This document shows, one piece after another, positions 9,449-63,466 of a stretch of DNA of 64,000 nt. The stretch's first letter is position 1. The number at the start of each line of letters is the position of its first letter. This DNA comes from Christensenellales bacterium. GTDB lineage: Bacteria > Bacillota > Clostridia > Christensenellales > CALWSW01. The position numbers were made by a program, and so were the translations under genes. The stretch covers positions 4,599-68,598 of the forward strand of contig JBMNTV010000002.1 of NCBI GenBank assembly GCA_050945915.1, in the 5' to 3' direction. The notes under the pieces are model-generated. The model saw only the letters and a list, made by a program, of their open reading frames with translations. It searched no databases and was not told the DNA's origin.

Positions 9449-9617
9449 AGTAACAAGCTGTCAAATTTTTAGTCAAAAACGTGTTTTTGTATGATTTTCG
9501 CAATATTTTTCAAATTTTTACTTGTCTAATATCAAAATCTGTTACCAAGAGGTATACCCTGGCGGATAAAATGTGGCTGGATAGCGTGAAACAAAGAAAC
9601 TGATAAATCAGCCTGGC

Positions 9618-12743: not shown

Positions 12744-13070
12744 GTGTATAACAAAATAGTCCGGTAGATTTAATTATACGTACCGTAGATCGTGAAACGG
12801 CATCAGATGGACATATCCCGCCATCGGGGATAAGGCCATCTTTTGCGTTCTCAGGATGCATGATAACGCCCCTATAAAAGCGGCACAAAAACGCGATGGA
12901 TAAGTTATAGTGAGAACATAAATGACGTGTGCAAATCCCCGGCCGAAAGCCATGAGATGCGGTCGCACTCCAGGCAAACGGGAATTCTGGAGATTGGCAG
13001 AACCGGTACCTCTACCTGATGTAGGGTTACACATAATTTGGAATAGCCTCGCAATTTACTCTACACGCAA

Positions 13071-15039: not shown

Positions 15040-15387
15040 GTTGCGTCCTCCGAAAATCTTGAGATGGTCGCCGTCGAGACGGAGAAGACCTTTTACACTA
15101 CCTGTTATATAACCGAAGCTGCAAAAAGTCAACATGTATAGCATGTTGTTGACAAGAACCGGGGATTTTATTCACGCAAAGCAAAATATGCCCCCGATTC
15201 TGCACCATATCTTGAGAAAATCGTCTAAAAAATCAAAAATGACTATTGACATGTTATACAAGCGGTGATATGTTTTCAATAACCATTTCGCTGCTGGTGA
15301 ATCCGGTTTGGGACTGATTGATGCTCCAATGCATACGATCATTCCGGAACATCTTGTGCAATCAGCTGCAAAAACGCCAAAGGAGGT

Positions 15388-15790
15388 GGTCTGCCCCTAG
15401 TCTTTGAACAAGTCGGAGTTAGTAAAGTTTGTGTTGGCAAAACGTTCCTTCTTTGTTTGGTTGCATCTTAACATAGGCCGAGGAGGCGCTCAAGGGCGCG
15501 CCAGCGCGTGTATGCGTTTATGATGAATCGCACCCTCAAACGATAAGTTGTGGTTCACTTCATGAAACCGTAAAAAGTATTTTCTACGATGCCGGAGATT
15601 TCTCGCCCAATCCTGCTACGTGGCCTGATTCGTAATGGTTCTTCCAACGTTGGCAAAAACCTACGCCTTATGGAGATTCCCAAACAGCTCGCCGTTGGAA
15701 AATCCATTCGGCATCCGGCTGCTAAGATTTCGCAGTATCCGTTCCCCCGGGGGCTACTCGGCCCAATATAAATAGTAAGTTCGCTCGCTA
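15388..15790 (-). pseudogene. Longer decayed remnant of the same rve-type transposase, copy B
   Basis: The minus strand reads ELTIYIGPSSPRGNGYCE. After frameshifts and stops it continues ...NGELFGNLHKA*VFANVGRTITNQ... and ...KD*GQTTSFGVFAA, resembling the C-terminal third of integrase-core transposases. Both ends match copy A at the nucleotide level. Confidence 0.5.
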
Positions 15791-16387
15791 ATTCTCCTGC
15801 ATGGCGTGCTTCCGCAATACTATCCTCCTAATTACATGGAAACTAGAACTTGCGAAGTCCTGCTCCTCCCCAGACTGTTTCCTTGTCACTTCCGCTAGCT
15901 CCCTTGCTTTGTTGATTATATCTCAACTGACTCTAGGGGTGGTACAAGGATTGGGGGGGAGGGCAATCTCTTTTGCTAATTGCATACGATGATCGCGTTC
16001 TTTTTGAAATCTTGTCATAATTCTCCCGGTATTCTCCCGTTTTCCGTCTTCGATTTCTGAACGCTTTTCCGCTCCGGCCATCTTAGCAGATCGGCCAAAG
16101 CCCAAACATGTGCCCGTAACGGTATAACATGTACAAAATTAACCTGACTACACATACAGGTCGTGATGAGATTTTGCTTAGTGGAAATTGAAACGGGGCA
16201 TTATTTTTAAGTCAACACTGCGCAAAAAACCCAACTAGTCTTACGCATAGGAAAGCGGGCTGTTCGCACCACATGGTGCTCCTATTCTCTGTGCATTGGA
16301 TACCTTGGGACAGTGTCCGAACAGTTCCTTGTGAAGATAAAGTATCGGAGCGTTCATCCGAAATATAAATAGTGAGAGGTATCTTCA

Positions 16388-17947
16388 ATGGCAAACCAAT
16401 ATGTTGTTGGAATCGATGCAGGTACTACCGGTTGCCGGACAGTCATCTTTGATCTGCAGGGCAACGAGATCGGCTCGGGGTATCGGGAGAACCCGTTGAT
16501 CTATCCGCAAGCCGGATGGGTTGAACTTGGAGTCCAGGATATCATCGACAACTGCTACGCATCGACGCGCGAAGCACTGACGAAGACCGGAATCGACCCC
16601 AAAGAGATTGCGTCGATCAGCTTCACCTATATGCGCCCTGTGGTCTGTCTGCGCGGAGAGGACGGAAGCTGGGTCCGTGATATTCAGATGTGGCAGGATA
16701 TGCGTGCCGCACAGGTGTTCCCCTGGATGACCCAGAGGCTCGCTGAGTTTGGCATGACGCCGGACGACCTGTATGATATCACCGGGTTCCCATATTCGAC
16801 TGTGTGGATGTTGGGCAAAATCTGCTGGATACAGCAGAATGAACCTGATGTTTGGGCGCGCGTCAAGCACATCCACAACCTTCACGGTGTCCTCGTGCAT
16901 GCGTATGGCTGCGAGGAGTGGCTCGAGAACAGCGAGGATCTCGGCTGGTGGCAGCTTAACAACTGCGATGACTTCACTTGGAACGAAAAGCTCTGCAAGG
17001 TCTTTCAGGTCGACCCCTCAATGCTTCCCAAGCATGTGCCCACCGGCACAGTCATAGGCGCCGTTTCGCGTGAGGTCGCCCAGAAGACCGGCTTGGCCGA
17101 GGGCACCCCGCTGGTCGCGGGCCTCGGTGACCAGCAGTGCGCCGCAGTCGGCATGGGCAATATCCGTGAAGGAATGGCCTCGCTCGTACTCGGGACCGCC
17201 GGCGTATTGGTCTGCCAGTCCGAGAAGCCGGTTCGTGACCCGAACCGCAAAGCACACGTTATTGGATCCGCTCTCCATAAATGGGAGATGGAGGGCCATT
17301 CAAGCGCCGCGGCGAGCTCCTTCAAGTGGATCCGCCAGACGTTTGGTCACATGGAGCAGGCCACTTCTGGCCTGACAGGCATCGACGTCAACGACCTGCT
17401 GACCGCGCAGGCGGCGAAGGCGAAGCCGGGAGCTCAGGGTCTGGTTTACATCCCGTGGCTCGCGGGTGCGGCCATGCCCTACTATGACACGAATGCGCGC
17501 GGTGCGTTTATCGGTATGACCTTTGGCCACCGCAAGTGCGAGATCTTGCGTGCCGGCATGGAAGGCGTCTGTTGTGAGATGCGCACTATGCTTGAGGCAA
17601 TCCAAAACGCTGGAGTCGCGCCATCCGAATACATCCGCATCGGTGGTGGCGCAGCTCGCTCGTCGCTGTGGAACCAGATCAGTGCGGACGTCTACGGTGT
17701 GCCGGTTGAGACGGTCAAGACACCCGAGAGCACTGCGCTCGGCGCGGCGATGATGGGCGCCATCGGCGTCGGCATCTTCAAAGACCTTAAGGAGGCGAGC
17801 GAAGCGATGGTCCATGTGACTGGCCGCTGGGAACCCATCCCCCAAAACGTTGAGGTCTACAACGAAATCTACCAGATATTCTTGAATTCTTACACCGCAC
17901 TGAAAGAGCAAGTATTCCCTGCTATCGCGAGGTTCCAGGGAGTCTAA
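16388..17947 (+). CDS. FGGY-family carbohydrate kinase (paralog of 863-2428)
   Basis: 519 aa. Contains VVGIDAGTTGCRTVIFD, GDQQCAAVG and GGGAARS. It aligns along its full length with the kinase at 863-2428. Confidence 0.9.
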   Translation: MANQYVVGIDAGTTGCRTVIFDLQGNEIGSGYRENPLIYPQAGWVELGVQDIIDNCYASTREALTKTGIDPKEIASISFTYMRPVVCLRGEDGSWVRDIQMWQDMRAAQVFPWMTQRLAEFGMTPDDLYDITGFPYSTVWMLGKICWIQQNEPDVWARVKHIHNLHGVLVHAYGCEEWLENSEDLGWWQLNNCDDFTWNEKLCKVFQVDPSMLPKHVPTGTVIGAVSREVAQKTGLAEGTPLVAGLGDQQCAAVGMGNIREGMASLVLGTAGVLVCQSEKPVRDPNRKAHVIGSALHKWEMEGHSSAAASSFKWIRQTFGHMEQATSGLTGIDVNDLLTAQAAKAKPGAQGLVYIPWLAGAAMPYYDTNARGAFIGMTFGHRKCEILRAGMEGVCCEMRTMLEAIQNAGVAPSEYIRIGGGAARSSLWNQISADVYGVPVETVKTPESTALGAAMMGAIGVGIFKDLKEASEAMVHVTGRWEPIPQNVEVYNEIYQIFLNSYTALKEQVFPAIARFQGV

Positions 17948-18235
17948 TGGAATACAAATCAATAAATTAGATACAAGAGCATATAGGGAGGGTCGGTTGC
18001 CAAACCTTTAAGCAACTGACCTTTCCGAAGCTTGTGATTACATACATGAAAGAAAGGACACCTAATAGCTCTAGACTTATTGATAATATGAACTGCAGAT
18101 AAAGGTGTTCTGAATCGTCAATGAGCTACCTTTGTTTTAAGAAGTGTTCAAAAAACTATATATAGCACTGCAAGAGAACATCGAACTGGCTGAATCCAAA
18201 GCCGATTCAGGTTGGTTTATAAGGAGGACATCGTA

Positions 18236-18997
18236 ATGGAAAAGAAACGTTTGGAAGGCGAAGTAGCGGCGGTGACCGGCGCAGCGTCGGGCTTGGACCG
18301 TGGAATCGCAATAGAGTTAGCTAAAAATGGCGCAATCGTTGCCTGCTGCGATATTGATGATCAGGGAAATATGAAAACGGTAGATATGATCAAAGCAGCT
18401 GGCGGGCAAGCATTCCCTGTGAAAATGAATGTAGGTGATTCCGCGTCCGTCGATGCTGCTTTTAAAGAAATATTTGATAAGACCGGTAGGCTCGACATTC
18501 TGGTCAATGGCGCAGCTATCTCAAGAAAGCTGCAACTACCCGAATGTACCGATGAGGAATGGGACCTGGTTATAAGGATTAATCTAACTGGTGCGTTTTA
18601 CACCATTCGTGCAGCATATCCCTATTTCAAGAAAACCGGTGGTGGAAAGATCGTGAATATTTCCTCGACCTCAGGTAAAAGCGGAGGGAGTTGGTCGGGT
18701 GCTCATTATGTCGCGTCCAAGGCTGGGGTGATAGGATTGACAAGGTATTGCGCCGGCTATTTCTGCAAGGATAATATCCGGGCCAATGCCATTTGCCCCG
18801 GTGTCGCAGAGACCCCGCTTACTGCTGATACTACGCCTGCAGTCCTAGATAAAATGCTTCAAAACATTCCAATGTGCAGAATGGCAACGCCGGAAGATGT
18901 AGCGGGCGCTGTTTTATTCCTGGTCTCTGATGAAAGCAAATACATTACGGGCATAACAGTAGATGTCACCGGCGGCAGATATATATATAATAACTGA
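18236..18997 (+). CDS. Short-chain dehydrogenase/reductase (SDR)
   Basis: Has the TGAASGLDRGIA Rossmann motif, NGAA and the catalytic YVASKAG (Y-x3-K). AAGGAGG RBS precedes ATG 18236, so the track start at 18212 was rejected. Confidence 0.9.
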   Translation: MEKKRLEGEVAAVTGAASGLDRGIAIELAKNGAIVACCDIDDQGNMKTVDMIKAAGGQAFPVKMNVGDSASVDAAFKEIFDKTGRLDILVNGAAISRKLQLPECTDEEWDLVIRINLTGAFYTIRAAYPYFKKTGGGKIVNISSTSGKSGGSWSGAHYVASKAGVIGLTRYCAGYFCKDNIRANAICPGVAETPLTADTTPAVLDKMLQNIPMCRMATPEDVAGAVLFLVSDESKYITGITVDVTGGRYIYNN

Positions 18998-19111
18998 CAA
19001 TTGTTCAGAGTTCCCATGGAATGAGATACTGCTCCAGCCAATACGAATGAAAACAAAAAACAGGGCTGGGTGGGTCTGATGTGTCCCCACAAAGCTGGAC
19101 AAATGTTTGGA

Positions 19112-20485: not shown

Positions 20486-22026
20486 TCCGTTCCACCTCCT
20501 GTGTTGTCAAAAAGCGCGGCGCAGAAATTGTCGCGCTCGTGGGATTGTGCAAAAGGGTCGGCCAGAAAGGGCAGAGCGACTACCGTCTGGCCTTTTGCAA
20601 TGCGCCGCAGGGCCTGCTGGCTTTCCGGGGACAACCGGGCCAGCGCGATGGACATGCGCAGGCCATTTCCCTGGAACATCCGCAAAACGCTCTCGCAAGC
20701 GATCCAGCGCGTGCGTCCAGCGTCCGCGACAAATACCCGCACCGCCGCCCTGGTCAACTCGTCCAGCTTGGCCTGCTGCTGGGTGGGTAGCACTGCGCCA
20801 TCGTTCTGGCGCACGATTGCGCCTATGTCGGCGATGACGTAATCATAGCCGCCGCGCATGACTTCCGCGATGGTTTCGCCGCCGTAAAAAACATCCACCC
20901 CGGCGTAGCTGTACGGCGTGTCCAGCGCGGGGCGGGGTGGAAGATAGCGGAGATCCGCTTCCCCCAGCAGTGCCGTGCGCAGGCCGTTATCCGCCAGCCA
21001 TGCGGCGATTGCCGCCGCTGTCCAGGTACATCCGCCCCCAGACATCGTCTGGAATACGGCCACCGTCTGGCAGCTGCTTGGCTTTGGCGGTTTGTATTTC
21101 TGAGGGGCAGGTTCGGCCTTGCCGCGCCCGTTCGACCGCCCGAATCCCTTCCGGGGTAAGCCCGATTCTTCCGGCTGGGGCTTGTCCGCAACGGATGCCT
21201 TCGGCGGCGCTTCGGGCGGCACCTCCGGGACGACTTTCAGCGGCATTCCCACAGGCGGCTCCGGTTCCGCAGCGGGTGCAGGGGCCTTTTTCGGCTTCCG
21301 GGGCGCGCTGGATTTTTTCGCGGGCTTTTTGCCCTGGGTCGGCGGTTCTTCCGGGGCTTCCGGTTCGGGCTGGTTTCCCAACTCAGGCAGGGCTTCCGGC
21401 CCGGGCGACGCTGGTTCGTTCGGGGTTGACGGAAGCACCAGATTTTCTGGTTCCGGTTGTGGTTCCGGCTCCTGCGCCGCCGCCGATTCCATCGGGCTTT
21501 CCGGCTCTGGCAAGGGGGATGGTTCTTCGGCTACAAAGGCAGAGGGCTGCACATCTTCCGGCGCTTCGGTTGACGGCTCGGCAGGGCCGATGCCCGGCGA
21601 GTCGATCACAGATACTTCGACACCACTGGTGTCGAAGTCGCAAGCCGGTTGTTCGGACGGCTCCACCGCCGCAAGCGCATCCAGCAATTCGTCCACCAAA
21701 GCGCGACTGTCGGTGACCAGCGCGGCCACCAGGGAATCCCGGATCAGCTTTTTCACACCGTCATCGGCTGCATCTGATTTCGAGCCGATCACGATCACCG
21801 GCATGGGTTTACGTTTTTGCACTTCGCGGAAAAATCTGCGCCGCCCGAAGTTGTCGGCCACGCTCATGTGCAGGATCAGGCAATCGGCGGCGCTTGCCGC
21901 CAGCATGTCCAACAGCGCGCCGGGGTCGGGAACATCCTCCCCGCAAAGGCGCACGCCGTGCCCAGTGAGCGCCGTCCGGATCGCAGCCGGAACCAGCGCC
22001 GTGAGGACGGCGGGATACTCGGTCAT
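20482..22026 (-). CDS. TadZ/CpaE-like protein: receiver-like N-domain, approx 200-aa Pro/Glu-rich linker, degenerate P-loop ATPase-like C-domain
   Basis: 514 aa with a GGAGGA RBS. The C-domain VAVFQTMSGGGCTWTAAAIAAWLADNG sits where MinD/ParA proteins have KGGxGKT. The middle region is EPEPQPEPE/PKKAPAP-rich. Confidence 0.6.
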   Translation of the reverse strand: MTEYPAVLTALVPAAIRTALTGHGVRLCGEDVPDPGALLDMLAASAADCLILHMSVADNFGRRRFFREVQKRKPMPVIVIGSKSDAADDGVKKLIRDSLVAALVTDSRALVDELLDALAAVEPSEQPACDFDTSGVEVSVIDSPGIGPAEPSTEAPEDVQPSAFVAEEPSPLPEPESPMESAAAQEPEPQPEPENLVLPSTPNEPASPGPEALPELGNQPEPEAPEEPPTQGKKPAKKSSAPRKPKKAPAPAAEPEPPVGMPLKVVPEVPPEAPPKASVADKPQPEESGLPRKGFGRSNGRGKAEPAPQKYKPPKPSSCQTVAVFQTMSGGGCTWTAAAIAAWLADNGLRTALLGEADLRYLPPRPALDTPYSYAGVDVFYGGETIAEVMRGGYDYVIADIGAIVRQNDGAVLPTQQQAKLDELTRAAVRVFVADAGRTRWIACESVLRMFQGNGLRMSIALARLSPESQQALRRIAKGQTVVALPFLADPFAQSHERDNFCAALFDNTGGGTD

Positions 22027-22271
22027 TTTATTCCTCCTCTCGCAAACGGCTTTTTGCCGCAGTTTGGAAATTTACCGGCTGAAAAAAAGACTGGCCGCAG
22101 AAGGAGCGTTGTGCTTCTTTCCGGGCCAGGGTATTACGTACTAAGCTTAGCTTATATTTCTTTCAGCTGGTTATCTTTTAAGAGAAACGATAGGGTAGCA
22201 GAGAGATGTATACTTGTCAAATTACTTGCCAAAACCGCGTTTTGCATGATTTTTGGGCTTTTTGCTAATTT

Positions 22272-22583
22272 TCACTCGTCCTCATCTTCGATCATTTCGT
22301 TCATTTCATAGCCTGTTTCTTGCAGCCTTTGCGGTACAGGCCAGACAATGCGGCTCAAGTCGCGTCCAACTTCAAGCAAAAAGGACGGCTCTTTGCCTTC
22401 GGATACGTCCTTTCGAACAGCTTCGAACGAAATCGCGCCTTCGCGCAGGGTGTACAGGAGGATGCTTTTGAAAATATCGGGCGGCATTTCGCTCCAGTTG
22501 TCCGGCATATACTTGGCGATCGGACTCAATTCGATGGTGAGTCGGTTGTTCGGGATGTCGATCACGGTTTTGATTTCGGCCAT
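22272..22583 (-). CDS. Hypothetical small protein with acidic C-terminus (EMNEMIEDEDE)
   Basis: 103 aa. AAGGAG RBS precedes the ATG, which starts 12 nt after the parB stop. No family recognised. Confidence 0.65.
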   Translation of the reverse strand: MAEIKTVIDIPNNRLTIELSPIAKYMPDNWSEMPPDIFKSILLYTLREGAISFEAVRKDVSEGKEPSFLLEVGRDLSRIVWPVPQRLQETGYEMNEMIEDEDE

Positions 22584-22595
22584 AGTCGGCTCCTT

Positions 22596-23756
22596 TCATT
22601 CTCTTTCAAGGTCATTCTTCGAGTGGCGGCTATTTTGACGGGACTCTATCTGCTTGTTTTTGCCAAGCATTCGCTGGGCAAACGCGCACAAAAGTCCATC
22701 CAGTTCGAGTATGATTTGCTCATCTGAGTAATCCTTGCTGGCGGGCTTGATGATGGCGAGCCGTTCCCGCACGCGCTTGTTGTCTATCTCAAGCATCTTT
22801 TTTCGCTTCTTGGGTTCCTCAGATTTTTGGACAAAAAAGAAATCGTCCAGGTATGCTTCTGTTATTCCCCCTGCCACACTTTGTCTTTTCAACGCCTCCG
22901 CTTCTTTTAATTTAGGCTTTACGCCCTGTTCGCGCATGAAATCCAGCAGCATCGCCTGTTCATCTCTTTCGAGGTAGGACAAGGCCACAGCGGTGTTTGT
23001 TGGTATTTTATTGCCGTCAACCATTTCAAGGAATTCTGAGATCAGATAAGAAAGCCGGATGTACCTATGAATTTGAGTTTTACTTGTCCCGGTAGCTGCA
23101 GCCAATTCGTCATCTGATCGCCCAGTTTGGAAACTCGTCCCAAGTTGGGACGAGTTTTCTTGCAACAACCCCTCAGAATAATCCGTCCCAAGTTGGGACG
23201 AGTTATTTTTGGAGGGCCTACCACTTTTACGCTTCATTGCATCCAATCGCATTCTATATGCCACAGCTAATTCGCTCGGCATCATTTTTTGCCGATGCAG
23301 AAGATTCGCCTCTGTCATCATAATGTCTGCGGTGGCATCGTCTACATACCGGATGGATGCGGAGATCATGGCAGGTTCTGGACTGTCGCCTTGGATTAGC
23401 CGCATTGCCGCCGCGCGGTTGTGGCCGGATATGATCTCATACTTGCCTTCCTCTGTTGGATGCGGTCGCACAAGAATTGGTTCTAGTACGCCGCATTCGC
23501 GTATACTGTCCGCAAGTTCAACCAGTTCTGCATTGGGACGCAGTTTAAAAGCATGTCGCGCATATGGTATCAGGTCTTTGATGTACAGGTCGGTGCGTTC
23601 TTCGAGTCCGCGCCCGTTGGTCGGGCGCGATATCTCTCTAATATAATTGCTCTCGGAACGCCGAGCAGAGGTATTTTTTGGATCAATAAGCGGACTTGTT
23701 TGGAGATCTCTTAACTCCTGCAGACGCTGATCAATTCTTTTGCTGTGTGCTGACAT
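22596..23756 (-). CDS. parB: ParB/Spo0J-family partition protein (ParB N-terminal domain + HTH)
   Basis: Contains ELADSIRECGVLEPILVRP...YEIISGHNRAAA (ParB box) and an HTH at LAAATGTSKTQIHRYIRL. GAGGTGG RBS lies 8 nt before ATG 23756. Confidence 0.88.
   Translation of the reverse strand: MSAHSKRIDQRLQELRDLQTSPLIDPKNTSARRSESNYIREISRPTNGRGLEERTDLYIKDLIPYARHAFKLRPNAELVELADSIRECGVLEPILVRPHPTEEGKYEIISGHNRAAAMRLIQGDSPEPAMISASIRYVDDATADIMMTEANLLHRQKMMPSELAVAYRMRLDAMKRKSGRPSKNNSSQLGTDYSEGLLQENSSQLGTSFQTGRSDDELAAATGTSKTQIHRYIRLSYLISEFLEMVDGNKIPTNTAVALSYLERDEQAMLLDFMREQGVKPKLKEAEALKRQSVAGGITEAYLDDFFFVQKSEEPKKRKKMLEIDNKRVRERLAIIKPASKDYSDEQIILELDGLLCAFAQRMLGKNKQIESRQNSRHSKNDLERE
23131..23200. promoter_or_regulatory. 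Two parS-like palindromes embedded in the parB coding sequence
   Basis: The sites are 23131-23157 aaactcgtcccaaGttgggacgagttt and 23184-23200 cgtcccaaGttgggacg. The core matches the 9618-9786 array. They encode the repeated peptide (N)SSQLGT. Confidence 0.6.
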
Positions 23757-23815
23757 ATTGGTTTCCACCTCTTACTTATATATTTGCCCACATTGACAAT
23801 GCCAACAAAGATGCA

Positions 23816-24642
23816 TCATAAGGCGGTCATGCTTGCAATCTTCTCCTTAGGTGTATGGAACTTTTTGATCAGTTCTGCGGAAAAAGCGCGATAGGCATCC
23901 GAAACCGTCTTTGCCTTTTTTAATTCAAGAACGCTCTGTCCCCACAGGGCACTTTCTTCTGCTCGAACTGATCGTGGTATTTGCGTCTGAAACACGCCAA
24001 TGCTGTCACCGTGTTCTTTACGAATCTCTTTGACAACATGTTTAGTATGATTGTTTCGCATGTCCGTCATATTCATTAGAACGCCAGAGATTTGCAAAGA
24101 ACTATTCACGGACTCCTGTATCTCGTTGATGTTACCAATGAGAGTGCGCATGCCCAGGATCGAATAATACTGCGCCTGGGTTGGAATGATGGCATGAGTC
24201 GCAGTTGTCAATGCGTTGGCGGTCAGCATGCCTAGGGTGGGCGGACAGTCAATTAAAATATAATCGTAACTACCATGCAAATGCTTGAGCACGCGATGCA
24301 GCACATACTCCCGGGCGTATTTTGCGTTGATCTGGTTGTCACACGTGGATAAGTTGATGTTGGCTGGGATATAATTCAGGTTTTCGCTGTGGTTAACGAT
24401 ACCCGCCTGAATGTCAAAAGCAGCGCCTGAGAGCGCTGCTTCCAAATAGTTGATATGGTTAATTTTAAGTCATCCGGCTTCGGGCAACCCAACCCGTGGG
24501 TCATGCTTGCCTGGGGGTCCATGTCCACCAGCAGCACGGTGTTGCCTTGCTCCGCGAGCGCGGCCCCGAGGTTGATTGTGACAGTTGTCTTGCCTACGCC
24601 ACCTTTTTGATTGACAATAGCGATTGTTTTTGTATTTTTCAT
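23816..24642 (-). pseudogene. parA: ParA/Soj-family partition ATPase, interrupted by a frameshift near 24444-24446
   Basis: The N-terminal part [20 protein letters not shown]...DMDPQ is in one frame (24642 downwards). The rest, [10 protein letters not shown]...LIDCPPTLG..., is in another (to 23816). Changing the A3 run at 24444-24446 by 1 nt would give the continuous reading ...KLTISTILEAALSG.... AAGGAG RBS is present. Confidence 0.8.
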
Positions 24643-24789
24643 TTGAAGATCTCCTTGTTTGTAAACGAGACACAACTTATGCCCAATGACTATGGCCCCT
24701 AAACCGGGGATAAGAAAGGCCCTATCGTAACTGCAGTTACAATAGGGCTGTATCCGTGTATGACGTGAAAATCGATCATACAACAACTG

Positions 24790-24835
24790 TGGAGCTGATG
24801 AGCAGATTCGAACTGCCTACCTCCTCATTACCAAT
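24790..24835 (-). repeat. 46-bp direct repeat (att junction) forming the 3' part of the intact tRNA-Thr
   Basis: Identical to 8122-8167. Confidence 0.9.
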
Positions 24836-24865
24836 GAGGTGCTCTACCGACTGAGCTACATCAGC
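24790..24865 (-). tRNA. tRNA-Thr (anticodon GGU), CCA encoded
   Basis: The reverse complement is gctgatgtagctcagtcggtagagcacctcattGGTaatgaggaggtaggcagttcgaatctgctcatcagctcca. It folds as a 76-nt cloverleaf with a 7-bp acceptor stem, a TTCGAAT T-loop and the anticodon loop ttGGTaa. Confidence 0.93.
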
Positions 24866-25042
24866 GATTCGATGCGTGATTCCCACCCTTTGACGGGCGC
24901 GCGCCTGCCAAAGCGCAATTAGCATTATACCCAATTTATCTTCATTGTGCAAGCCCTATTTCACGTTTTTCACCAAAGGCATGCATGGAAAAACCTGCAG
25001 CCCGGGGAAAGTATCCCCCGGGCCGGCAGGCAAACGAAAACA

Positions 25043-34625: not shown

Positions 34626-35480
34626 ATGTACATCGCGGATGGCTGGAAGGATTACGAACTGATCGATTGCGGCTCGGGGGACAAGTTCGAGCGCTGGGGG
34701 AAATACACCCTGCTGCGGCCGGACCCTTTGGCCATCTGGCCGTTAGAGCCCTGCTCGCCCCACGCGGTGTACCACCGCTCCAGTTCCGGCGGCGGCCATT
34801 GGGAATACCTGCGCCCCCTGCCGGAAAAATGGGAGATCCATTATAAAAACCTCACCTTCATCGTGCGGCCCACCGGCTTCAAGCACACCGGGCTGTTTCC
34901 GGAGCAGGCCGTCAACTGGGACTGGATGACCAGCCTCATCGAGAAGGCGGCGAAGCGCCCGATCTCGGTTTTGAACCTGTTTGCCTATACCGGCGGCGCC
35001 ACCGTCGCCTGCCTCAAGGCCGGGGCGCAGGTGCTGCACCTGGACGCCGCCAAAGGCATGGTGGCCTGGGCGAAGGACAATGCCGCCGCCTCCGGCGTGG
35101 CTTCCGCTCCGGTGCGCTACATCGTGGACGACGCGATGAAATTCGTCCTGCGGGAAGCCCGGCGGGGACGGAGATACGACGCGGTGATCATGGACCCCCC
35201 GAGTTACGGCCGGGGCCCCACCGGTGAAATGTGGAAGATCGAGGAAGGTCTGTTTCCGCTGGTGACGGCCTGCGCGAACATCCTGTCCGATGACCCGCTG
35301 TTTTTCCTGATCAGCAGCTACACCACGGGGTTGGCCCCCATCGTGCTGAAAAATGTGCTGAACCTCGCCCTGGTTTCCCGCTACGGCGGGAAAGCGGAAG
35401 CCGGCGAAGTCGCCCTGCCCTGCACGAGAAGGCGGATCTTTCTGCCCTGCGGCGCGTCGGGGCGCTGGACGGCGAAATAA
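34626..35480 (+). CDS. Class I SAM-dependent methyltransferase (RlmI/Methyltrans_SAM-like)
   Basis: 284 aa. VLNLFAYTGGATVA (SAM motif I-like) and AVIMDPPSYGRG (motif IV DPP) are typical of RlmI/YwbD-type methyltransferases. Confidence 0.7.
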   Translation: MYIADGWKDYELIDCGSGDKFERWGKYTLLRPDPLAIWPLEPCSPHAVYHRSSSGGGHWEYLRPLPEKWEIHYKNLTFIVRPTGFKHTGLFPEQAVNWDWMTSLIEKAAKRPISVLNLFAYTGGATVACLKAGAQVLHLDAAKGMVAWAKDNAAASGVASAPVRYIVDDAMKFVLREARRGRRYDAVIMDPPSYGRGPTGEMWKIEEGLFPLVTACANILSDDPLFFLISSYTTGLAPIVLKNVLNLALVSRYGGKAEAGEVALPCTRRRIFLPCGASGRWTAK

Positions 35481-36180: not shown

Positions 36181-38067
36181 ATGCACACGTTTGACGCCGG
36201 CACATTTGACGCCGTGGTGGTCGGCGCGGGCCACGCGGGTTGCGAAGCCGCCCTTGCCCTGGCAAGGATGGGGCACCGCACCCTCTGCCTGACCATGAAT
36301 CTGGATTCCGTGGCGCTGATGGCCTGCAACCCCGCCATCGGCGGCTCCAGCAAGGGCCACCTCGTGCGGGAAATCGACGCGCTGGGCGGCGAGATGGGCC
36401 TTGCCGCGGACGAGACTTTGATACAACTGAAACTCCTGAATACCGGCAAGGGCCCCGCCATCCACAGCCTGCGCGCCCAGATGGACAAGCGGCGCTACCA
36501 CGAGCGCATGAAGCGCACCCTGGAGCGGACGGAAAATCTGTTCCTCCGCCAGGGCGAATGCGTAAAAATTCTGGTGGAGGACGGAAAGGCGACAGGCGTG
36601 GTCACCGCCACCGGGGCGGTTTACCGCGCTCGTGTGGTGATCCTCGCCACCGGGGTTTACCTCAAAAGCAGGATCATCATCGGGGAAGCCTCGTTTAACC
36701 AAGGCCCCAGCGGGCTGCAGAGCGCAAATCTGCTTTCCCAAAGTTTGGAAGAATTGGGCTTTCCTCTTCGCCGATTCAAAACCGGGACCCCCGCCCGGGT
36801 GAACCTCCGTTCCTTGGACCTTGAAAAGACCGTACCCCAGTACGGTGACCCCAAGGCCCCGCCCTTTTCCTTCCTGACGAAAGAAAGGAAAGATGCCGAT
36901 CACCCCTGCTATCTGACGTATACCAACGAAACAACCCACGAGCTGATCCGGTCGAATCTGCACCGGGCGCCGATGTACAGCGGCACCATCAAGGGCACAG
37001 GGGCGCGGTATTGCCCCTCGATTGAGGACAAGGTCGTCCGCTTTGCCAACAAGGACCGGCACCAGATCTTCCTGGAGCCGGAGGGGCTGACGACGGACGA
37101 AGTGTACCTCCAGGGCTTGTCCACCTCCATGCCGGAGGATTTGCAGGTGCGGATCATCCGCACCGTCGCCGGGTTGGAACGGGCAGAGGTGATGCGGCCG
37201 GCCTATGCCATCGAGTACGACTGCATCGACCCCACCCAGCTCAACCTCTCCCTGGGCGCGAAAACCATCAAGGGCCTGTATTTCGCCGGCCAGATCAACG
37301 GCACCAGCGGATACGAAGAAGCCGCCGCCCAGGGCATCGTGGCGGGGATCAACGCCTCTTTGTGGCTGCGGGGAAAAGACCCGCTCATCCTGCGCAGGGA
37401 CGACAGCTACATCGGCGTGCTCATCGACGATCTGGTCACCAAGGGCACCAACGAGCCCTACCGCATGATGACCAGCCGCGCCGAATACCGCCTGCTTTTG
37501 CGGCAGGACAATGCGGATCTGCGCCTGACGGAACTGGGTTACGCTGCAGGGCTGGCCACCAGGGAGCGCTACGAAACCATGCGGACCAAAAAGCAGGAGC
37601 TTGAGGAAGAGCTCGCCCGAATGAAGGCGACAAAGGTCCTAAAGTCCGAGTTTTTGCGCATGCTGGAGGAGCGCAATGAGCATTCTCCTAAAAAGATCCC
37701 CACGCTGTTTGACCTTTTGAAGCGGGAGGGGTTCAGCCTTGCGGACGTTTCCCGCTGCGACCCGGACCCCCGCCCCATTTCCCCCGCCGTGGCGGAGCAG
37801 CTGGCGATTGAGGCGAAGTACGAAGGGTACATTGCCAAACAGCGGGACGAGGTGGAGCGCTTCAAAAAGCTGGAGGATCGCCGGATCCCGAAAGATCTGG
37901 ATTATGCGAATCTTTCCGGCCTGCGACTGGAAGCCCGGCAGAAGCTGGACAAGCAGCGGCCGGAAAACATCGGCCAAGCGTCCCGCATTTCCGGCGTTTC
38001 GCCGGCGGACGTGGCGGTGCTGCTCATCGCCGTGGAAAAATACCAACGAGAAAAAGGAGCGCGCTGA
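36181..38067 (+). CDS. mnmG: tRNA uridine-5-carboxymethylaminomethyl modification enzyme MnmG (GidA)
   Basis: 628 aa. Has [18 protein letters not shown] (FAD fold) and is GidA-like over its full length ([11 protein letters not shown]-type segment [11 protein letters not shown]). Confidence 0.96.
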
Positions 38068-38768
38068 TGGACAACGGCATTCTGCTTTCCGCTTTTTCCG
38101 CAGTCTCCTTTACCCCCAGCCCGGAACAGGTGGAACAATTCCAAACCTATCATGCCCTGCTTGCCGAATGGAACCAGCGGATCAACCTGACCGCCGTCAT
38201 CGACGACGAAGGTGTGGCGCAAAAGCACTTTGCGGATTCCCTGCTCGTCCTGCCTTTTTTGAAGGGGGAAGAACGGGTTTTGGACCTGGGCACCGGTGCC
38301 GGATTCCCCGGCGTGCCGCTTTTGATCGCCCGGCCGGGACTCAAACTCACCTTGATGGATTCGGTGAAGAAAAAGCTGGATTTTTTGGCGCATCTGCTGC
38401 CAGAACTCGGCCTGACAGCCGAACTCCTCCATGCCCGGGCAGAGGATGCGGCAAAAAAGACCGAATACCGGGACGGGTTCGACCTCGTCCTTTCCCGGGC
38501 GGTGGCGCCGATGAACGTGCTGGCGGAGCTCGCCCTGCCCTTTGTGCAGCCCGGGGGGAAGGCGGTGTGCTTCAAGGGCCCCGCGCTTTCTGATGAGCTG
38601 GCGGTTGCCCGGCGCGCTTTGCGTGAGCTTTGCGCAAAAGTGGCAGAAGTGCGGGAGTTCTCCCTTCCCTGGGGGGAACGCAAGCTGGCCGTACTCCAAA
38701 AAACCGCGCCCACGCCCAAAAAATACCCCCGCCAGGCGGGAAAAGCGTCCAGGAACCCCCTATGCTGA
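38067..38768 (+). CDS. rsmG: 16S rRNA (guanine527-N7)-methyltransferase RsmG (GidB)
   Basis: 233 aa with VLDLGTGAGFPGVPL. The start overlaps the mnmG stop (TGATG), the canonical mnmG-rsmG pairing. Confidence 0.9.
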   Translation: MDNGILLSAFSAVSFTPSPEQVEQFQTYHALLAEWNQRINLTAVIDDEGVAQKHFADSLLVLPFLKGEERVLDLGTGAGFPGVPLLIARPGLKLTLMDSVKKKLDFLAHLLPELGLTAELLHARAEDAAKKTEYRDGFDLVLSRAVAPMNVLAELALPFVQPGGKAVCFKGPALSDELAVARRALRELCAKVAEVREFSLPWGERKLAVLQKTAPTPKKYPRQAGKASRNPLC

Positions 38769-51194: not shown

Positions 51195-51329
51195 AACAGT
51201 CGCCAAACCCATGTTTTTGAGCAGCGACTGCGACAGCGGGGTATTTTCCCATTTTTTCATGGCACACTAATGTTATAATCATGATGCTGTTGCGGGTTGA
51301 TTGCCAAACAAAAGGAGGATGCCCCAGAA

Positions 51330-51677
51330 ATGGAAGATATTTTTGACAAAATCGTGGAAGGCGTCAAAAAAGGTGCCAGTACCGTCAAAAAAGGCGCCAG
51401 CGTGGTGGCGGACAAGGGCGAACAGTTGGTAGAGCTGACCAAGCTGCGCGCCGCCCGGGCCCGGCTTCAGGACGAGCTGGAGAGGAACTACGCGGAACTT
51501 GGCCGCGAGCTTTACGAGATGGTGGAGCGCGACCACATCATTTCCGAGACCCTCCGGTCCCGCTGCGCCGTCATCGGCCATATCAAGGCCCAGATAGCGG
51601 ACAGTATTGCCGAGGAAACCGAGCGGTTCGAAGGCAAGAAAAAAGAAGAAGAGAAAAAGAAGAATCCAGAAGAATAG
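51330..51677 (+). CDS. Hypothetical coiled-coil protein with Lys/Glu-rich tail
   Basis: 115 aa from MEDIFDKIVEGVKKGAS. AAGGAGG lies upstream of ATG 51330 and a strong terminator follows. No family recognised. Confidence 0.6.
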   Translation: MEDIFDKIVEGVKKGASTVKKGASVVADKGEQLVELTKLRAARARLQDELERNYAELGRELYEMVERDHIISETLRSRCAVIGHIKAQIADSIAEETERFEGKKKEEEKKKNPEE

Positions 51678-51691
51678 CTCCAGTTGCAAAG

Positions 51692-51730
51692 GGCGCGGGT
51701 TTTCGGTTGTGGAAAACCTGCGCCTTTTTA
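51692..51730 (+). terminator. Rho-independent terminator
   Basis: ggcgcgggttttc / ggttgtg / gaaaacctgcgcc followed by ttttt. Confidence 0.8.
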
Positions 51731-51905
51731 TTTCTTAAAAACCAACCATTGTTGACAATGTGTGGAAAAGGTGGAAAACTCCCGCGCCTTTTCACAAGGT
51801 ATCCACTTGTTTTCAATGCCCAAAAGCCAGTGTTTTGGCTGGTTGCCACTGGTTTTCCACCTGTCCACAACCCCTACTACTACTACTACGTACTTATTTA
51901 TTTGG
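51708..51905. promoter_or_regulatory. oriC segment downstream of dnaA: DnaA-box-like 9-mers plus GC cluster, (CTA)5 and an AT-rich stretch
   Basis: tgtggaaaa occurs at 51708 and 51761, ttttccacc at 51853 and ctgtccaca at 51861. These are followed by ccc, cta x5 (51874-51888), then cgtacttatttattt. Confidence 0.6.
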
Positions 51906-51956
51906 AGCAGCCGCCAAAACCCGCACAAAGGCGAACCCGAACGCAAAAACGCCGGC

Positions 51957-51989
51957 AAAAAAGAAAAACGCCCCGAAAAGTGGGGCGTT
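51957..51989 (-). terminator. Rho-independent terminator of dnaA
   Basis: Minus strand: aacgcccc / acuuuuc / ggggcguu followed by a U-run, starting 4 nt after the dnaA TGA. Confidence 0.8.
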
Positions 51990-51992
51990 TCG

Positions 51993-53300
51993 TCATTCCT
52001 CGATCTTTCGTTTGATGTCGTCCATCTCTGCGGCAAAGGCTGGGTCCTTGGCAATGTCCTCGGTGACCTTGTCCACAGCGTAAATCACAGTGGAATAATG
52101 CCTGCCGCCAAAGCATTCGCCGATCTTTTCCAAGGAAGCGTCCGTCATCGTGCGGCAGAGGTACATGGCGATCTGCCGGGGGGCGACGATCTCAGCATTT
52201 CTGCGCTTGGAAGCCAGATCCTCGGGGGCGAGCTTAAAGTACTTGGTGACCATCGACTGGATGTACGGAATGTCGATGACGGGCTTTTCCGGCGCGGTCA
52301 GGCTGTCTTTGAGCGCTTCCGCCGCCAGCTCCACGGTGACGGGAACCCCCCTGAGTTCCGAATGGGCCATCACCCTGGTCAAGGAGCCTTCCAGCTCCCT
52401 GATGTTGGTCTGGGTATGCTCGGCGATGAAGCGCAGCACATCCCCCGGCACCTGCATATTTTCGCAGATCGCCTTTTTTTCCAGGATGGCGATGCGCGTC
52501 TCGTAATCGGGCTTTTGAATATCCGCCACTAGGCCCCAGCCGAAGCGGCTGCACAGGCGTTCCTCCAGGGCGGGGATTTCCCGCGGGGGCTTGTCCGACG
52601 AGATGATGATCTGCTTTTGCAGCTCGTACAGGGCGTTGAAGGTATGGAAGAACTCCTCCTGGGTTCCCTCCTTGTTGGACAAAAACTGGATATCGTCCAC
52701 CATCAGCACGTCCACGCTCCTGTATTTCCTCCGAAACTCCTCGTTCTTGTCGTTTCTGATGGCGAAGATCAGCTCGTTGGTGAACTTTTCGCTGGTTACG
52801 TACATGACGTTGGAAGAAGGCGAGCTTTCGGTGATGGCATTGCCCACCGCGTGCAGCAGGTGGGTTTTGCCCAGGCCCACGTCCCCGTAAATAAAAAGAG
52901 GATTATAGCGTTTCCCGGGGTTTTGGGCGACGGCCACGGCCGCGGCGTGGGCAAACTTGTTGGAGGAGCCGATGATGAAGGTATCAAAGGTGTACTTCGG
53001 GTTGATGGAGGCAGATGCTTCGTCTTCCTGCCGGTCCGCCGGAGCCTCCATCTCGCCAGGCATGACCACTTTGATCCTGTAATTGCGGCCCCCTGCGCGG
53101 TATAGAGCGTCCTCGATCGTCTGCGCGTAGCGGTCGGTCAGCATTCGTTTGACGAATTCCTCGTCCGTTTCAAGTATGAGCAGCCTATCCTTAAGGTCGA
53201 CAACCTTGAGGTCTTCGATATAGCTGCAATAGGTCGCGGTAGAAAGCTCTTCCTTCAAAATGGGCAGGGTGCTTTCCCACACGCTTTCGGCAAGGCTCAT
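51993..53300 (-). CDS. dnaA: Chromosomal replication initiator protein DnaA
   Basis: 435 aa from MSLAESVWES. Has the AAA+ Walker A GDVGLGKTHL, box VII and the C-terminal DNA-binding helix IGECFGGRHYSTVIYA. GGAGGA RBS precedes ATG 53300. Confidence 0.96.
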   Translation of the reverse strand: MSLAESVWESTLPILKEELSTATYCSYIEDLKVVDLKDRLLILETDEEFVKRMLTDRYAQTIEDALYRAGGRNYRIKVVMPGEMEAPADRQEDEASASINPKYTFDTFIIGSSNKFAHAAAVAVAQNPGKRYNPLFIYGDVGLGKTHLLHAVGNAITESSPSSNVMYVTSEKFTNELIFAIRNDKNEEFRRKYRSVDVLMVDDIQFLSNKEGTQEEFFHTFNALYELQKQIIISSDKPPREIPALEERLCSRFGWGLVADIQKPDYETRIAILEKKAICENMQVPGDVLRFIAEHTQTNIRELEGSLTRVMAHSELRGVPVTVELAAEALKDSLTAPEKPVIDIPYIQSMVTKYFKLAPEDLASKRRNAEIVAPRQIAMYLCRTMTDASLEKIGECFGGRHYSTVIYAVDKVTEDIAKDPAFAAEMDDIKRKIEE

Positions 53301-53436
53301 ATTATCCTCCATTCGATGTTGAAAACCGGCGCGCATATCCACATATGAAATTGGTTAAAGACGTTAACTATGTGAATACGCTTCGTACATTATAGCAAAT
53401 GCGACGTAAATAGTGAAGCGTATATTGGGTTTTAGG

Positions 53437-53523
53437 TTTTCCACATCCATCACATCACATTTATGTGGATAACGTGGATAACTCGGCGGTTTTCTGTGGA
53501 TAATGTGCAAAAACTTATCCATA
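53437..53523. promoter_or_regulatory. DnaA-box cluster upstream of dnaA (oriC / dnaA promoter region)
   Basis: Two perfect TGTGGATAA boxes (53464-53472, 53495-53503). Three one-mismatch boxes: ttttccaca 53437, cgtggataa 53473, ttatccata 53515. Confidence 0.8.
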
Positions 53524-53670
53524 ACGCCGTGAAGACTGTGAAAAAAGCGTATCACCACCCAAACGGCAAAAAGTGTTATCCTTATTTTGGCGATTCCTGT
53601 ATTCGTTTTCAAATTGTTTTTTTGTGTTTGATCCAATGATGCGATACAATACCAAACAACAGGGGGTTGG

Positions 53671-54201
53671 ATGGAATTGCTATTTCTTCCGGAAAGTGCA
53701 AGGCTGGGTACGGATTTTGCGGATGTTTCCTTTTACGCCGGGGAACATGCAAAAGCAAATGCCGCGGCCCTGGACGCCGAATGGTTCGAAAATGTGCGGA
53801 TTGCATCCGGATTCGTCAACGCGGATTTGACGAAAAAGGCCATCCTGTCCCTGCTTTCGGGCATCGATATTCAACAAGCGGACTTTCGTCTTGAGGAGAT
53901 GACGGAGGAGGAGCTGTTTTCCCCTGTCGTGTGTGCGTATTTGGCCATCCTTCCCCGGGCGACTGCCAAAAAAATAGAACGATGCCCCGCGTTCCAAGGC
54001 GAAAGAAGAAAGCTGTTGCTTCGCCTGATCGCGGCTTATTTCGGCGATTTTTCCCTTACGGAAGAACTTTCCCTGTGCAAAAGGGTGATGGACGAGATGC
54101 GCTCCTCTTTTTTGAACTGCGGGGAGGACGAGAGTCTGTCCATCCTCTGTTCCGTTTCACTGGCCGTACTCAAAAAGCGAATTGACGGAGGATTTGCATG
54201 A
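53671..54201 (+). CDS. Hypothetical protein
   Basis: 176 aa with no recognisable motif. Its stop overlaps the next gene's ATG (ATGA at 54198-54201), which suggests an operon. Confidence 0.5.
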   Translation: MELLFLPESARLGTDFADVSFYAGEHAKANAAALDAEWFENVRIASGFVNADLTKKAILSLLSGIDIQQADFRLEEMTEEELFSPVVCAYLAILPRATAKKIERCPAFQGERRKLLLRLIAAYFGDFSLTEELSLCKRVMDEMRSSFLNCGEDESLSILCSVSLAVLKKRIDGGFA

Positions 54202-61193: not shown

Positions 61194-61991
61194 TCAAACG
61201 GCTTTGCTCTGCTCCGTTCTGGTCAGGTCGTCGATCAGCAGCTTATCCGCCACAAGGGCTATGAATTCGCCGTTCGTGGGTTTTTCCTGCTTGCCGTAGA
61301 TCGTATACCCGAAGATGCCGTTGATGTTTTCGATCTTGCCCCTGGCCCAGGCGACCTCGATGGCGTGGCGGATGGCACGCTCCACCTTGCTGGCGGTGGT
61401 ATCAAAGGCCCGGGCCACGCCTGGATAAAGCTCCTTGGTGATGGAGTTGATGATGGATCTGTCCGAATAGACCTGCTTAACCGCTTCCCGCAGGAAGTGG
61501 TACCCCTTGATGTGGGCGGGAATGCCGACGGCAAGGAATACGTTTGCGATGCGCTCGTCCAGGGATTTGACCGGCGGCAGCCGCTCGGGGACGCGCAACG
61601 CGGGCTTTTCCACAGCCTGCACCTGGGACGGAGTCTCGATGACGCGGTTGATCAGCGACTCCAGATTAAAGGGTTTGACGAAATAATAATAGATGCCAAA
61701 AGTGCAGGCTTTTTGGACGACATCATCCTGAGACAGCGCGGTCATCACGATGATCTTCGGCGGCTTGGGAAGGGAGCAGGCCCGCTCCAGAACGGCGAAG
61801 CCGTCTGTCTGGGAGAGTACCAAATCGAGCAAGAGCACGTCATAATCTCCGCTGTTGAGGCATTCCACTGCTTCGGCACCGCCGGCGACACATCGACAGC
61901 TTTCCACTTCTTCCCTGCGGGTGAGTGCTGCATAGATTTCATTGCGAAGAGATGCGTTCCCATCTGCAACCAGAACTTTCAGTGTTTTCAT
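61194..61991 (-). CDS. spo0A: Sporulation master response regulator Spo0A
   Basis: 265 aa. Receiver domain (LLLDLVLSQTDG, VMTA, VKPF). Spo0A-specific C-domain with GIPAHIKGYHFLREA, TKELYP, SKVERAIRHAIEVAW and PTNGEFIA. GGAGGA RBS precedes ATG 61991. Confidence 0.95.
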   Translation of the reverse strand: MKTLKVLVADGNASLRNEIYAALTRREEVESCRCVAGGAEAVECLNSGDYDVLLLDLVLSQTDGFAVLERACSLPKPPKIIVMTALSQDDVVQKACTFGIYYYFVKPFNLESLINRVIETPSQVQAVEKPALRVPERLPPVKSLDERIANVFLAVGIPAHIKGYHFLREAVKQVYSDRSIINSITKELYPGVARAFDTTASKVERAIRHAIEVAWARGKIENINGIFGYTIYGKQEKPTNGEFIALVADKLLIDDLTRTEQSKAV

Positions 61992-62421
61992 GTGCTTCCT
62001 CCGATCGGTTTGTGCGTTCTGAACATGTTCTTTGCCGATTTCTACAACATATAGTGACAGTATCACTATATGTGTCTAAGTATAGCATTAGAATGTAAAA
62101 ATTGACAGAGCAGAACTATGTCGATGTTCTACTTATATAAACGAATGCCGTCGATATTTCCTTGGGGAAAGCGATTGCGCGTCTTTTGGCGCGAAACCCG
62201 GGACTTGACAGGTGGAAAAATACGTCTGAAATCGACAAAGTTATTCAGTATAACCCAAAGTGTGCTTAATTTCTGCTAATACCCGACCAGAAGTACTTTA
62301 TTCACGTTATTTTGTTTTTTTACACCCCAAATCGTATTTTGGGGATTTTTTGTGCTGCTTTGGGGGTTTTTTCATCGTCAAAAGATGCGTCTTTTGCGGA
62401 CAAAGCAAAGATCCGCAAAAG

Positions 62422-62515
62422 TAATCCACATTTTCCACAGTTATCAACAGAGTTATCCACAAAAAAACCGTCGAATGCATGGTGTTGTGAGTAAAAATGT
62501 GGATAATGTGGAAAA
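62422..62515. promoter_or_regulatory. Third DnaA-box cluster (between spo0A and veg)
   Basis: taatccaca 62422, ttttccaca 62431, ttatcaaca 62441, TTATCCACA 62453 (perfect), TGTGGATAA 62498 (perfect) and tgtggaaaa 62507. Confidence 0.7.
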
Positions 62516-62624: not shown

Positions 62625-62912
62625 ATGGGTGCGTTGGAGCTGAATGCCATCAAGGCCGCGATGGAGAATCGCATCGGAGAAACCGTCGAACTGCATTGCT
62701 TTTCAAGAAGGAAGGTTTCCAAACATGTCGGCGTCTTGGAGGGCGCGTATAACGCGGTGTTCACGGTGCTGGTGGTGACGGAGGACGGCCCGAGGAGGCT
62801 GAGCTACACCTATACGGATGTTTTGACCAAATCCATCCTCATCAAACCCGCCGGCGAGTTCGAAGAAGAAGTCCCCAAAGCAGGGTCTGCCAAAAGCCTT
62901 TCCATATCCTAG
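62625..62912 (+). CDS. veg: Veg-like small protein (DUF1021)
   Basis: 95 aa. LNAIKAAMENRIGETVELH...RKVSKHVGVLEGAYNAVFTV...RLSYTYTDVLT is collinear with B. subtilis Veg as I recall it. GGGAGAG RBS precedes ATG 62625. Confidence 0.78.
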   Translation: MGALELNAIKAAMENRIGETVELHCFSRRKVSKHVGVLEGAYNAVFTVLVVTEDGPRRLSYTYTDVLTKSILIKPAGEFEEEVPKAGSAKSLSIS

Positions 62913-62965: not shown

Positions 62966-63466
62966 ATGAAAAAGGTTGCCATACCCCTCGCCCTTGCCGT
63001 TTTGCTGATTTTGTCCGCCGTTCGGCCAATGCGGTTGCATGTGATTGCCAACAGCGACACAGAATATGATCAGGCGGTCAAGCTTGCCGTTCGGGACGCG
63101 GTACTGGGCGTGTTGAACGACGACGGCGGCCCGGAAAATTTCGAGGACGCCGAAGCCGCGATTGTCCAAAACGGCGAAGCCTTGCAGCAAGCCGTGGACA
63201 ACACCCTGAAAGAATGGAGCGCGGGTTATTCCGGAACCCTGTATCTTGGAAACAGCGCCTTTCCCGAAAAGGTGTACGCCGGCAAGGTCTACCCCGCGGG
63301 GAAATACGAAGCCCTGCGGGTGGTGCTGGGCGAAGGCGGGGGCAAAAACTGGTGGTGCGTCATCTATCCGCCCCTTTGCCTGGGCGAATTTGCCGAAAAC
63401 GGGGAGGGGCCTGTGGTGTTCCGGTCGTTCCTGGCCGAGCTGTTTCACCGGTGGTTTGGGATTTGA
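62966..63466 (+). CDS. spoIIR: Stage II sporulation protein R
   Basis: 166 aa. Signal/TM segment, then RLHVIANSDTEYDQAVKLAVRDAV and NWWCVIYPPLC, the SpoIIR signatures. Confidence 0.85.
   Translation: MKKVAIPLALAVLLILSAVRPMRLHVIANSDTEYDQAVKLAVRDAVLGVLNDDGGPENFEDAEAAIVQNGEALQQAVDNTLKEWSAGYSGTLYLGNSAFPEKVYAGKVYPAGKYEALRVVLGEGGGKNWWCVIYPPLCLGEFAENGEGPVVFRSFLAELFHRWFGI

Follow-up and report, generated by a model that had tools for sequence, protein, structure and literature searches.

A candidate basal unwinding system, inverted relative to dnaA and set apart from dnaN, in a Christensenellales bacterium

The basal unwinding system (BUS) of Bacillus subtilis, located in incC (Richardson 2016/2019; Pelliciari 2021), lies after dnaA and before dnaN. 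Read along the strand that carries the DnaA boxes, it runs 1852->1900 as TTATCCACA, AATCCACA, GGCC and CTACTATTACTTCTACTA...; its spacer, counted from first box to first DnaA-trio, is 12 (PMC8287927). The predicted BUS of Staphylococcus aureus (2067->2103) reads TTATCCACC, AATCCACA, GCAC, CTACTACTATTACTA, again with a spacer of 12, and has five trios (PMC8287927). Table S1 of that study writes the BUS 3'->5' on the trio strand; all sequences were converted here to the box strand. The published criteria allow a first-box-to-trio spacer of 0-16 bp, with a mode of 12-13 and a gap of ~4 bp counted in (PMC8287927, section 13). It was shown for B. subtilis that the box-to-trio orientation is essential and that incC has a two-subregion structure (PMC6669920). 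In C. difficile, DnaA-dependent P1 sensitivity was demonstrated at oriC2, which lies between dnaA and dnaN, and the rnpA-rpmH-dnaA-dnaN context was called conserved throughout the Firmicutes (PMC7561715). An earlier note on the DNA described here had taken the boxes of B. subtilis to be dnaA-proximal, and the position of its BUS bears this out. No paper on oriC in the Christensenellales was found in the literature.

The stretch analysed here (the window) is 64 kb long. On its + strand, as read from the sequence, 51853-51903 carries in order TTTTCCACC, TGTCCACA, ACCC, (CTA)5 and CGTACTTATTTATTT. The upstream proximal DnaA box is TTTTCCACC (51853-51861, + strand), with two mismatches to 5'-TTATCCACA-3', the E. 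coli consensus; it faces the trios and lies within the limit of two mismatches for a first box. The second proximal box, CTGTCCACA or (C)TGTCCACA (51861/2-51869, + strand), also has two mismatches, where up to four are tolerated for a tandem box between the first box and the trios. The earlier note had described two adjacent 9-mers with two mismatches each. The mismatch counts hold, but the 9-mers share one base, so the tandem pair (51853-51869) has a 9+8 layout. The gap, given there as a GC cluster 'ccc', is in fact 4 nt, ACCC (51870-51873, + strand). The five perfect CTA triplets reported at 51874-51888 are indeed there, and they provide five perfect 3'-GAT-5' trios on the - strand, opposite the boxes, where at least three consecutive central-A trios (3'-NAN-5', consensus 3'-GAT-5') are required. 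The first-box-to-first-trio spacer, including the gap, is 12 in a BUS-style scan. On the box-distal side of the trios lies the AT-rich run CGTACTTATTTATTT (51889-51903), part of a short AT-rich element CGTACTTATTTATTTGG (51889-51905, no strand); the run is only ~15 nt long and gives way to GC-rich DNA.

In the notation used for the published systems, the window module reads TTTTCCACC, TGTCCACA, ACCC, CTACTACTACTACTA; its spacer is 12 and it has five trios. The layout is that of the B. subtilis incC BUS, as the earlier note had proposed. The two agree in order, strand relationship and spacing, and also in the pattern of box#6/#7, in which a 9-nt box and an abutting 8-nt box are followed by a 4-nt gap. 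The window has fewer trios (five against nine) and a shorter AT-rich run (~15 nt against 27). The S. aureus BUS shares with the window an upstream box ending in C (…CCACC), the 9+8+4 layout and exactly five trios. Judged by its sequence, the module is thus a near-textbook candidate BUS, with the geometry kept to the nucleotide.

The adjacent dnaA gene (51993-53300, - strand) is complete and encodes 435 aa, as in the relatives, with the Pfam domains DnaA_N, Bac_DnaA and Bac_DnaA_C. Its likely start is the ATG at 53300, preceded by a GGAGG ribosome-binding site; the mechanical open reading frame reaches a GTG at 53342 (51993-53342, - strand). A distance of 84 nt separates the AT-rich end of the module from the dnaA stop, and the module occupies an intergenic region of ~315 bp bounded by two convergent intrinsic terminators. 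One of these (51688-51728, + strand; 17-bp stem, 7-nt loop, T tail) serves a convergent small gene (51321-51677, + strand), and its loop contains a DnaA box, TTTTCCACA (51708-51716, - strand). The other, that of dnaA (51965-51991, - strand), is an inverted repeat with a 10-bp stem, six GC pairs and a T tail. Between them, a distal tandem pair, TTTTCCACA (51761-51769) and TTTTCCACC (51770-51778), occupies 51761-51778 on the - strand. This reverse pair and the proximal forward pair form an inverted repeat, 11 nt of it perfect, at a distance of 72-75 nt. A further box-like 9-mer with two mismatches, GTATCCACT, follows at 51799-51807 (+ strand). This incC-like architecture of distal reverse and proximal forward boxes matches that described for B. 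subtilis, with its two subregions. Across dnaA, a box cluster resembling incA/B or oriC1 (53335-53523, no strand) has two perfect and five one-mismatch boxes and encloses a sigma-70-like dnaA promoter (53417-53389, - strand). DnaA-box clusters therefore lie on both sides of dnaA, 51708-51869 and 53335-53523, as in a canonical Firmicutes oriC.

A separate motif, CCAAAAGCCAGTGTTTTGG, with arms CCAAAA/TTTTGG, is found at 51820-51856 between the distal and proximal boxes, where inverted repeats (AAAGCCAGTG/CACTGGTTTT) overlap. Of five close relatives compared, four retain the motif, and the more distant L010 has a similar GCCAAAAG...GGTTTTGG. Some other origin-binding factor may bind there.

Of all 25-mers in the dnaA flanks, 51878-51902, which covers trios and AT-rich run, is the least stable, and window-wide it belongs to the top 0.24%. 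When lengths of 40 nt are compared instead, DNA upstream of dnaA equals the module in instability. The AT-rich element 51889-51905 is presumed to be the first stretch that melts fully.

The wider surroundings are less familiar. On one side, the neighbours are a 176-aa ORF and a transglutaminase-like gene; on the other side lie a small coiled-coil ORF and an RluA-type synthase gene. A tblastn search of the 64 kb with the relatives' DnaN, RecF, Jag, YidC and RnpA gave no match for dnaN, recF, jag, yidC or rnpA, and a motif search for rpmH found no L34 in the same 64 kb. The canonical arrangement of rpmH-rnpA upstream and dnaN-recF downstream is thus absent from the window, and the remark that no dnaN follows dnaA stands. 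The two ORFs next to the origin unit, 51321-51677 and 53671-54201, flank it in all close relatives. The product of 51321-51677 is lysine/glutamate-rich, probably coiled-coil and ~108-118 aa long, and that of 53671-54201 has 173-176 aa; neither ORF has a Pfam or NCBIfam match.

Eight close relatives, all annotated as Christensenellales MAGs, were obtained by DnaA-based searches (L001, L002, L005, L007, L013, L018, L019 and L020), and their DnaA proteins are 87-92% identical to that of the window. Synteny extends to both sides, with DegV, the transglutaminase-like gene and the 173-176-aa ORF on one and the small ORF, RluA-type synthase and M28 peptidase on the other. The module is kept in all eight. 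In all nine loci it lies on the strand opposite dnaA with its AT-rich end nearest the dnaA stop, so the observation that this end faces the 3' end of dnaA extends from the window to the eight relatives. None of the nine has the canonical order, with dnaA-proximal boxes and the AT-rich end towards dnaN. In L007, the small ORF is separated from the incC-like region by an insertion of ~1.6 kb of AT-rich extra DNA (1340-2967), which leaves the module untouched.

Conservation was quantified as mean pairwise identity in an alignment of five loci (A1). The tandem boxes have the highest value in the intergenic region (0.89), followed by the trios (0.87), the distal boxes (0.80), the AT-rich element (0.75) and the box-like GTATCCACT (0.71, with an invariant TCCAC core), against 0.53 overall and ~0.4 in the flanks. 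The gap is conserved in length and not in sequence (0.43); the relatives have TCCC, TGGA or AAGC. No indel occurs from the boxes through the AT-rich end, and the substitutions preserve a CTN register. The TTTTCCACC box at 51853-51861 is invariant in five relatives. The trio tract measures 15 nt in all nine loci, with the clade consensus CTA CTN CTA CTA CKG. Five perfect CTA copies occur at the window locus alone, and trio 2 of L001 is CGA, which violates the central-A rule. The earlier note had named a variable microsatellite, absent from close relatives, as one of the findings that would overturn its reading. Since the module recurs in relatives with 87-92% DnaA identity without any change of length and with point substitutions only, the tract appears from these comparisons to be a constrained element, not a length-variable microsatellite.

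The module is far beyond chance. Within the window, (CTA)4 occurs only here, where 0.03 occurrences are expected. A scan by the published permissive rules (box with <=2 mismatches, spacer of 0-16, >=3 NAN trios; PMC8287927, section 13) returned 40 candidates window-wide, of which the module alone has 3'-GAT-5' trios, namely five; in 100 Markov-simulated windows, GAT trios numbered at most two. Near-consensus DnaA boxes (<=1 mismatch) show an enrichment of about three-fold (23 against 7.4 expected) and cluster at 51708-51769, 53335-53523 and 62422-62515; none lies at 33-44 kb. Alternative BUS sites upstream of dnaA and at the last of these clusters were considered and rejected, as the scan found no GAT trios at either. 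Overlapping ORFs (51707-52015, 51728-52054 and others) were rejected as a coding explanation of the tract because the region sits between two terminators and the indels among relatives are not multiples of three. No structured RNA was detected within the intergenic regions or close to them; the only match to Rfam above its gathering threshold was a tRNA elsewhere in the window.

The third cluster is a feature in its own right. At 62422-62515, six boxes, two of them perfect, are packed into 94 bp without trios, between the divergent spo0A (61194-62066, - strand) and a veg homologue (62625-62912, + strand), with spoIIR next (62966-63466). It is conserved in L013 (453-546). As a DnaA-controlled promoter or a titration site, it may couple sporulation genes to the initiation of replication.

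The inverted position of the module was compared with more distant relatives. In six of these, the boxes are dnaA-proximal and in canonical orientation. L008 and L012 (57% and 58% DnaA identity) have the classical order jag-yidC-rnpA-(rpmH), dnaA, incC, dnaN-recF, and dnaA-incC-dnaN is found in L014 (Luoshenia tenuis, 54%), L015 (56%) and L004 (45%). The five have homologous tandem boxes, a gap of 4 nt and a tract rich in CTA, and in all five, unlike the window, dnaN comes after the dnaA-proximal boxes. L008 reads ...CCCCA, ACCC, CTACTACTACTACTG and even has ACCC followed by CTACTACTACTACTG in common with the window. A second box of 9 nt is found in L008, L012, L015 and L004, whereas L014 and the window clade have one of 8 nt. 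Outside the clade, the closest incC sequence is that of L010/L011 (DnaA 62%), AATTCCACA, GCGC, CTACTACTACTACTC, CGTACTTAATATTTC, which also has a CCAAAAG...TTTTGG motif; its orientation is canonical, but an rRNA-methyltransferase-like gene separates dnaA from incC. The window ortholog of this methyltransferase (PF10672; L010 1939-2790) lies at 34626-35480 (+ strand), 16 kb from the module, and is 77% identical. Between window and L010 the methyltransferase thus exceeds DnaA in identity (77% against 62%), the reverse of the close clade, where DnaA is better conserved than its neighbours. The dnaA context is non-canonical in another way in L016/L017 (58% DnaA identity), where dnaA and a transglutaminase-like gene converge; this gene is 37% identical to its counterpart upstream of the window dnaA. 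The upstream region of L016/L017 is strongly AT-rich and poor in consensus boxes.

Measured against these outgroups, the window clade has a derived arrangement, in which all of the incC-like region (~250 bp) has been inverted relative to dnaA and the unit has been detached from rpmH-rnpA and dnaN-recF. A single inversion, whether from an L010-like or a canonical ancestor, cannot reproduce the observed gene order, from which at least two events are inferred.

Whether the chromosomal origin lies here can be judged in part from base composition. The cumulative G-C minimum of the window is at 51060, near the module, although 64 kb alone cannot fix a genome-wide minimum; within these 64 kb, the skew does not place the origin elsewhere, which the earlier note had named as grounds for giving up its reading. 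GC3 skew was pooled over + strand genes only, which are present on both sides of the module. To the left, the value is -0.160 for 32.7-42.2 kb and -0.179 for 43.4-51.7 kb, and to the right it is -0.074 for 53.7-64 kb, a shift that, as a rough estimate from counts, corresponds to z ~3 on pooled sites and p ~0.01 by gene. The direction is that expected for a switch from lagging to leading strand at the locus and is consistent with an origin here.

Gene orientation tells another story. Between 32707 and 51677, about 15 of 17 genes are on the + strand, i.e., directed towards the module over ~19 kb, and are therefore head-on to a fork leaving it. They include PGM, methyltransferase, mnmG (36181-38067, + strand), rsmG (38067-38768, + strand), rlmH, cca, fumarase subunits, M28 and RluA genes. 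Head-on gene arrays are unusual for Firmicutes, and in canonical Firmicutes mnmG and rsmG point away from oriC. Taken alone, gene orientation would place the origin further left, and it suggests that either the origin or this block of genes has been relocated. The module also lies between convergent transcription units, whose positive supercoiling would be expected to hinder melting.

The explanation that we favour, with a probability of roughly 0.8, is that the module is the unwinding half (the incC/oriC2 equivalent) of a bipartite chromosomal origin and acts as its basal unwinding system. By analogy with B. subtilis, domain IV of DnaA would bind the tandem boxes at 51853-51869, which would serve as a filament platform equivalent to box#6/#7. 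ATP-DnaA recruited from the distal boxes (51708-51807), and probably also from the cluster at 53335-53523, would oligomerise from this platform, and both sets of boxes could raise the local DnaA concentration via looping. The oligomer would then run along the - strand over the five 3'-GAT-5' trios (51874-51888), and stretching of this strand would open the duplex into the AT-rich element (51889-51905), where the helicase would be loaded. Because the incC-like region is inverted relative to dnaA, the bubble would open in the direction of the dnaA terminator and not of dnaN.

A broader account, offered tentatively and with the odds somewhat against it, is that the entire dnaA-oriC unit was rebuilt and relocated. 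The incC part would have been inverted relative to dnaA and incA/B and uncoupled from rpmH-rnpA and dnaN-recF, and the unit would now fire inside a co-oriented gene array, with ~19 kb including mnmG-rsmG left head-on and the skew since re-equilibrated.

Other explanations compete with an active unwinding site. The module could be a relic, or an auxiliary DnaA site for autoregulation or titration, left behind by rearrangement while the origin lies elsewhere, e.g., linked to dnaN or further left. The absence of dnaN, recF, rpmH and rnpA from the window fits this explanation, as do the left-hand genes, which over ~19 kb all face the module in the way expected if they had the origin on their left, the second DnaA-box cluster ~10 kb away, and the several different rearrangements around dnaA in related lineages. 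A relic, however, would not retain boxes, spacing and trio register as the best-conserved intergenic part in nine loci between which the flanking proteins have an identity of only 65-78%. The shifts in skew and GC3 skew coincide with the locus, the window offers no other site with both boxes and trios, and the 33-44 kb region is devoid of near-consensus boxes. This explanation is regarded as unlikely. Quite improbable, too, is an origin at the dnaA locus that melts upstream of the gene (53340-53630), with the downstream boxes acting only as a DnaA reservoir. It is true that 53340-53379 is the least stable stretch of the locus at the 40-bp scale, that 53593-53632 is comparable with the module, and that, at this locus, perfect consensus boxes occur in the upstream cluster alone. 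Yet no box-spacer-GAT-trio arrangement is present there, the best upstream candidate having zero GAT trios, and these AT-rich stretches coincide with the dnaA promoter/5' region and the promoter of the neighbouring gene. Moreover, B. subtilis and C. difficile are also AT-rich upstream, yet unwinding maps to the trio side (PMC6669920, PMC7561715).

The possibility that (CTA)5 arose by chance or is a slippage-prone microsatellite beside autoregulatory DnaA boxes deserves very little weight. The tract is a perfect trinucleotide repeat, picked up as such by Tandem Repeats Finder, and no other locus has five perfect copies. Against this stand its constant 15 nt in 8/8 relatives, which differ by base substitutions and not by copy number, its recurrence behind tandem boxes and a gap of 4 nt in relatives whose DnaA identity is as low as 45%, and the chance expectation of ~0.03 per window.

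Elsewhere in the window, three islands (8000-13000, 15000-19000 and 22000-25000) have a GC content of 0.45-0.52, compared with ~0.58-0.60 in the remainder, and may be acquired DNA. The third adjoins the sole tRNA of the window (tRNA-Thr, 24790-24865, - strand) and a DnaA-box-like pair at 24344-24396.

The locus adds a well-supported candidate BUS from an uncultured, fairly GC-rich clostridial lineage, in which the geometry of 9+8+4 and trios has been retained despite the rearrangement of everything around it. If the unit was indeed rebuilt and relocated, it would amount to a natural experiment in which the orientation of a BUS relative to dnaA, incA/B and flanking transcription proves unconstrained, and the context called conserved across Firmicutes origins would be breakable. 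Tools for oriC prediction often assume a dnaA-dnaN context, and the present case is useful for them. It also offers a test of bipartite-origin looping and of the tolerance of convergent transcription.

Set against the known systems, the window combines the familiar with the exceptional. As in B. subtilis, distal boxes lie upstream of the proximal pair, and a second box cluster is found across dnaA. The unit of the window is inverted relative to dnaA, with no dnaN after it and no rpmH-rnpA upstream, unlike that of B. subtilis; the S. aureus BUS likewise has the canonical dnaA-dnaN position and orientation. Like the probable origin of the window, C. difficile oriC2 belongs to a clostridial bipartite origin and has a CTACTACTA-type trio tract (5'-CACCTACTACTATTACTACTATGA-3') directly before the DNA unwinding element (DUE). 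C. difficile oriC2 retains the rnpA-rpmH-dnaA-dnaN context, to which the window clade is an exception, and an inversion that is stable over nine loci, together with the lost linkage to dnaN and rpmH, contradicts a Firmicutes-wide conservation of origin context (PMC7561715). The internal box-to-trio orientation of the window is the canonical one, which suggests that only this orientation matters, and not that relative to dnaA or to the second box cluster. The BUS is a known type of module; what is less ordinary is that it stays inverted relative to dnaA throughout the clade and that the rnpA-rpmH-dnaA-dnaN neighbourhood has been lost.
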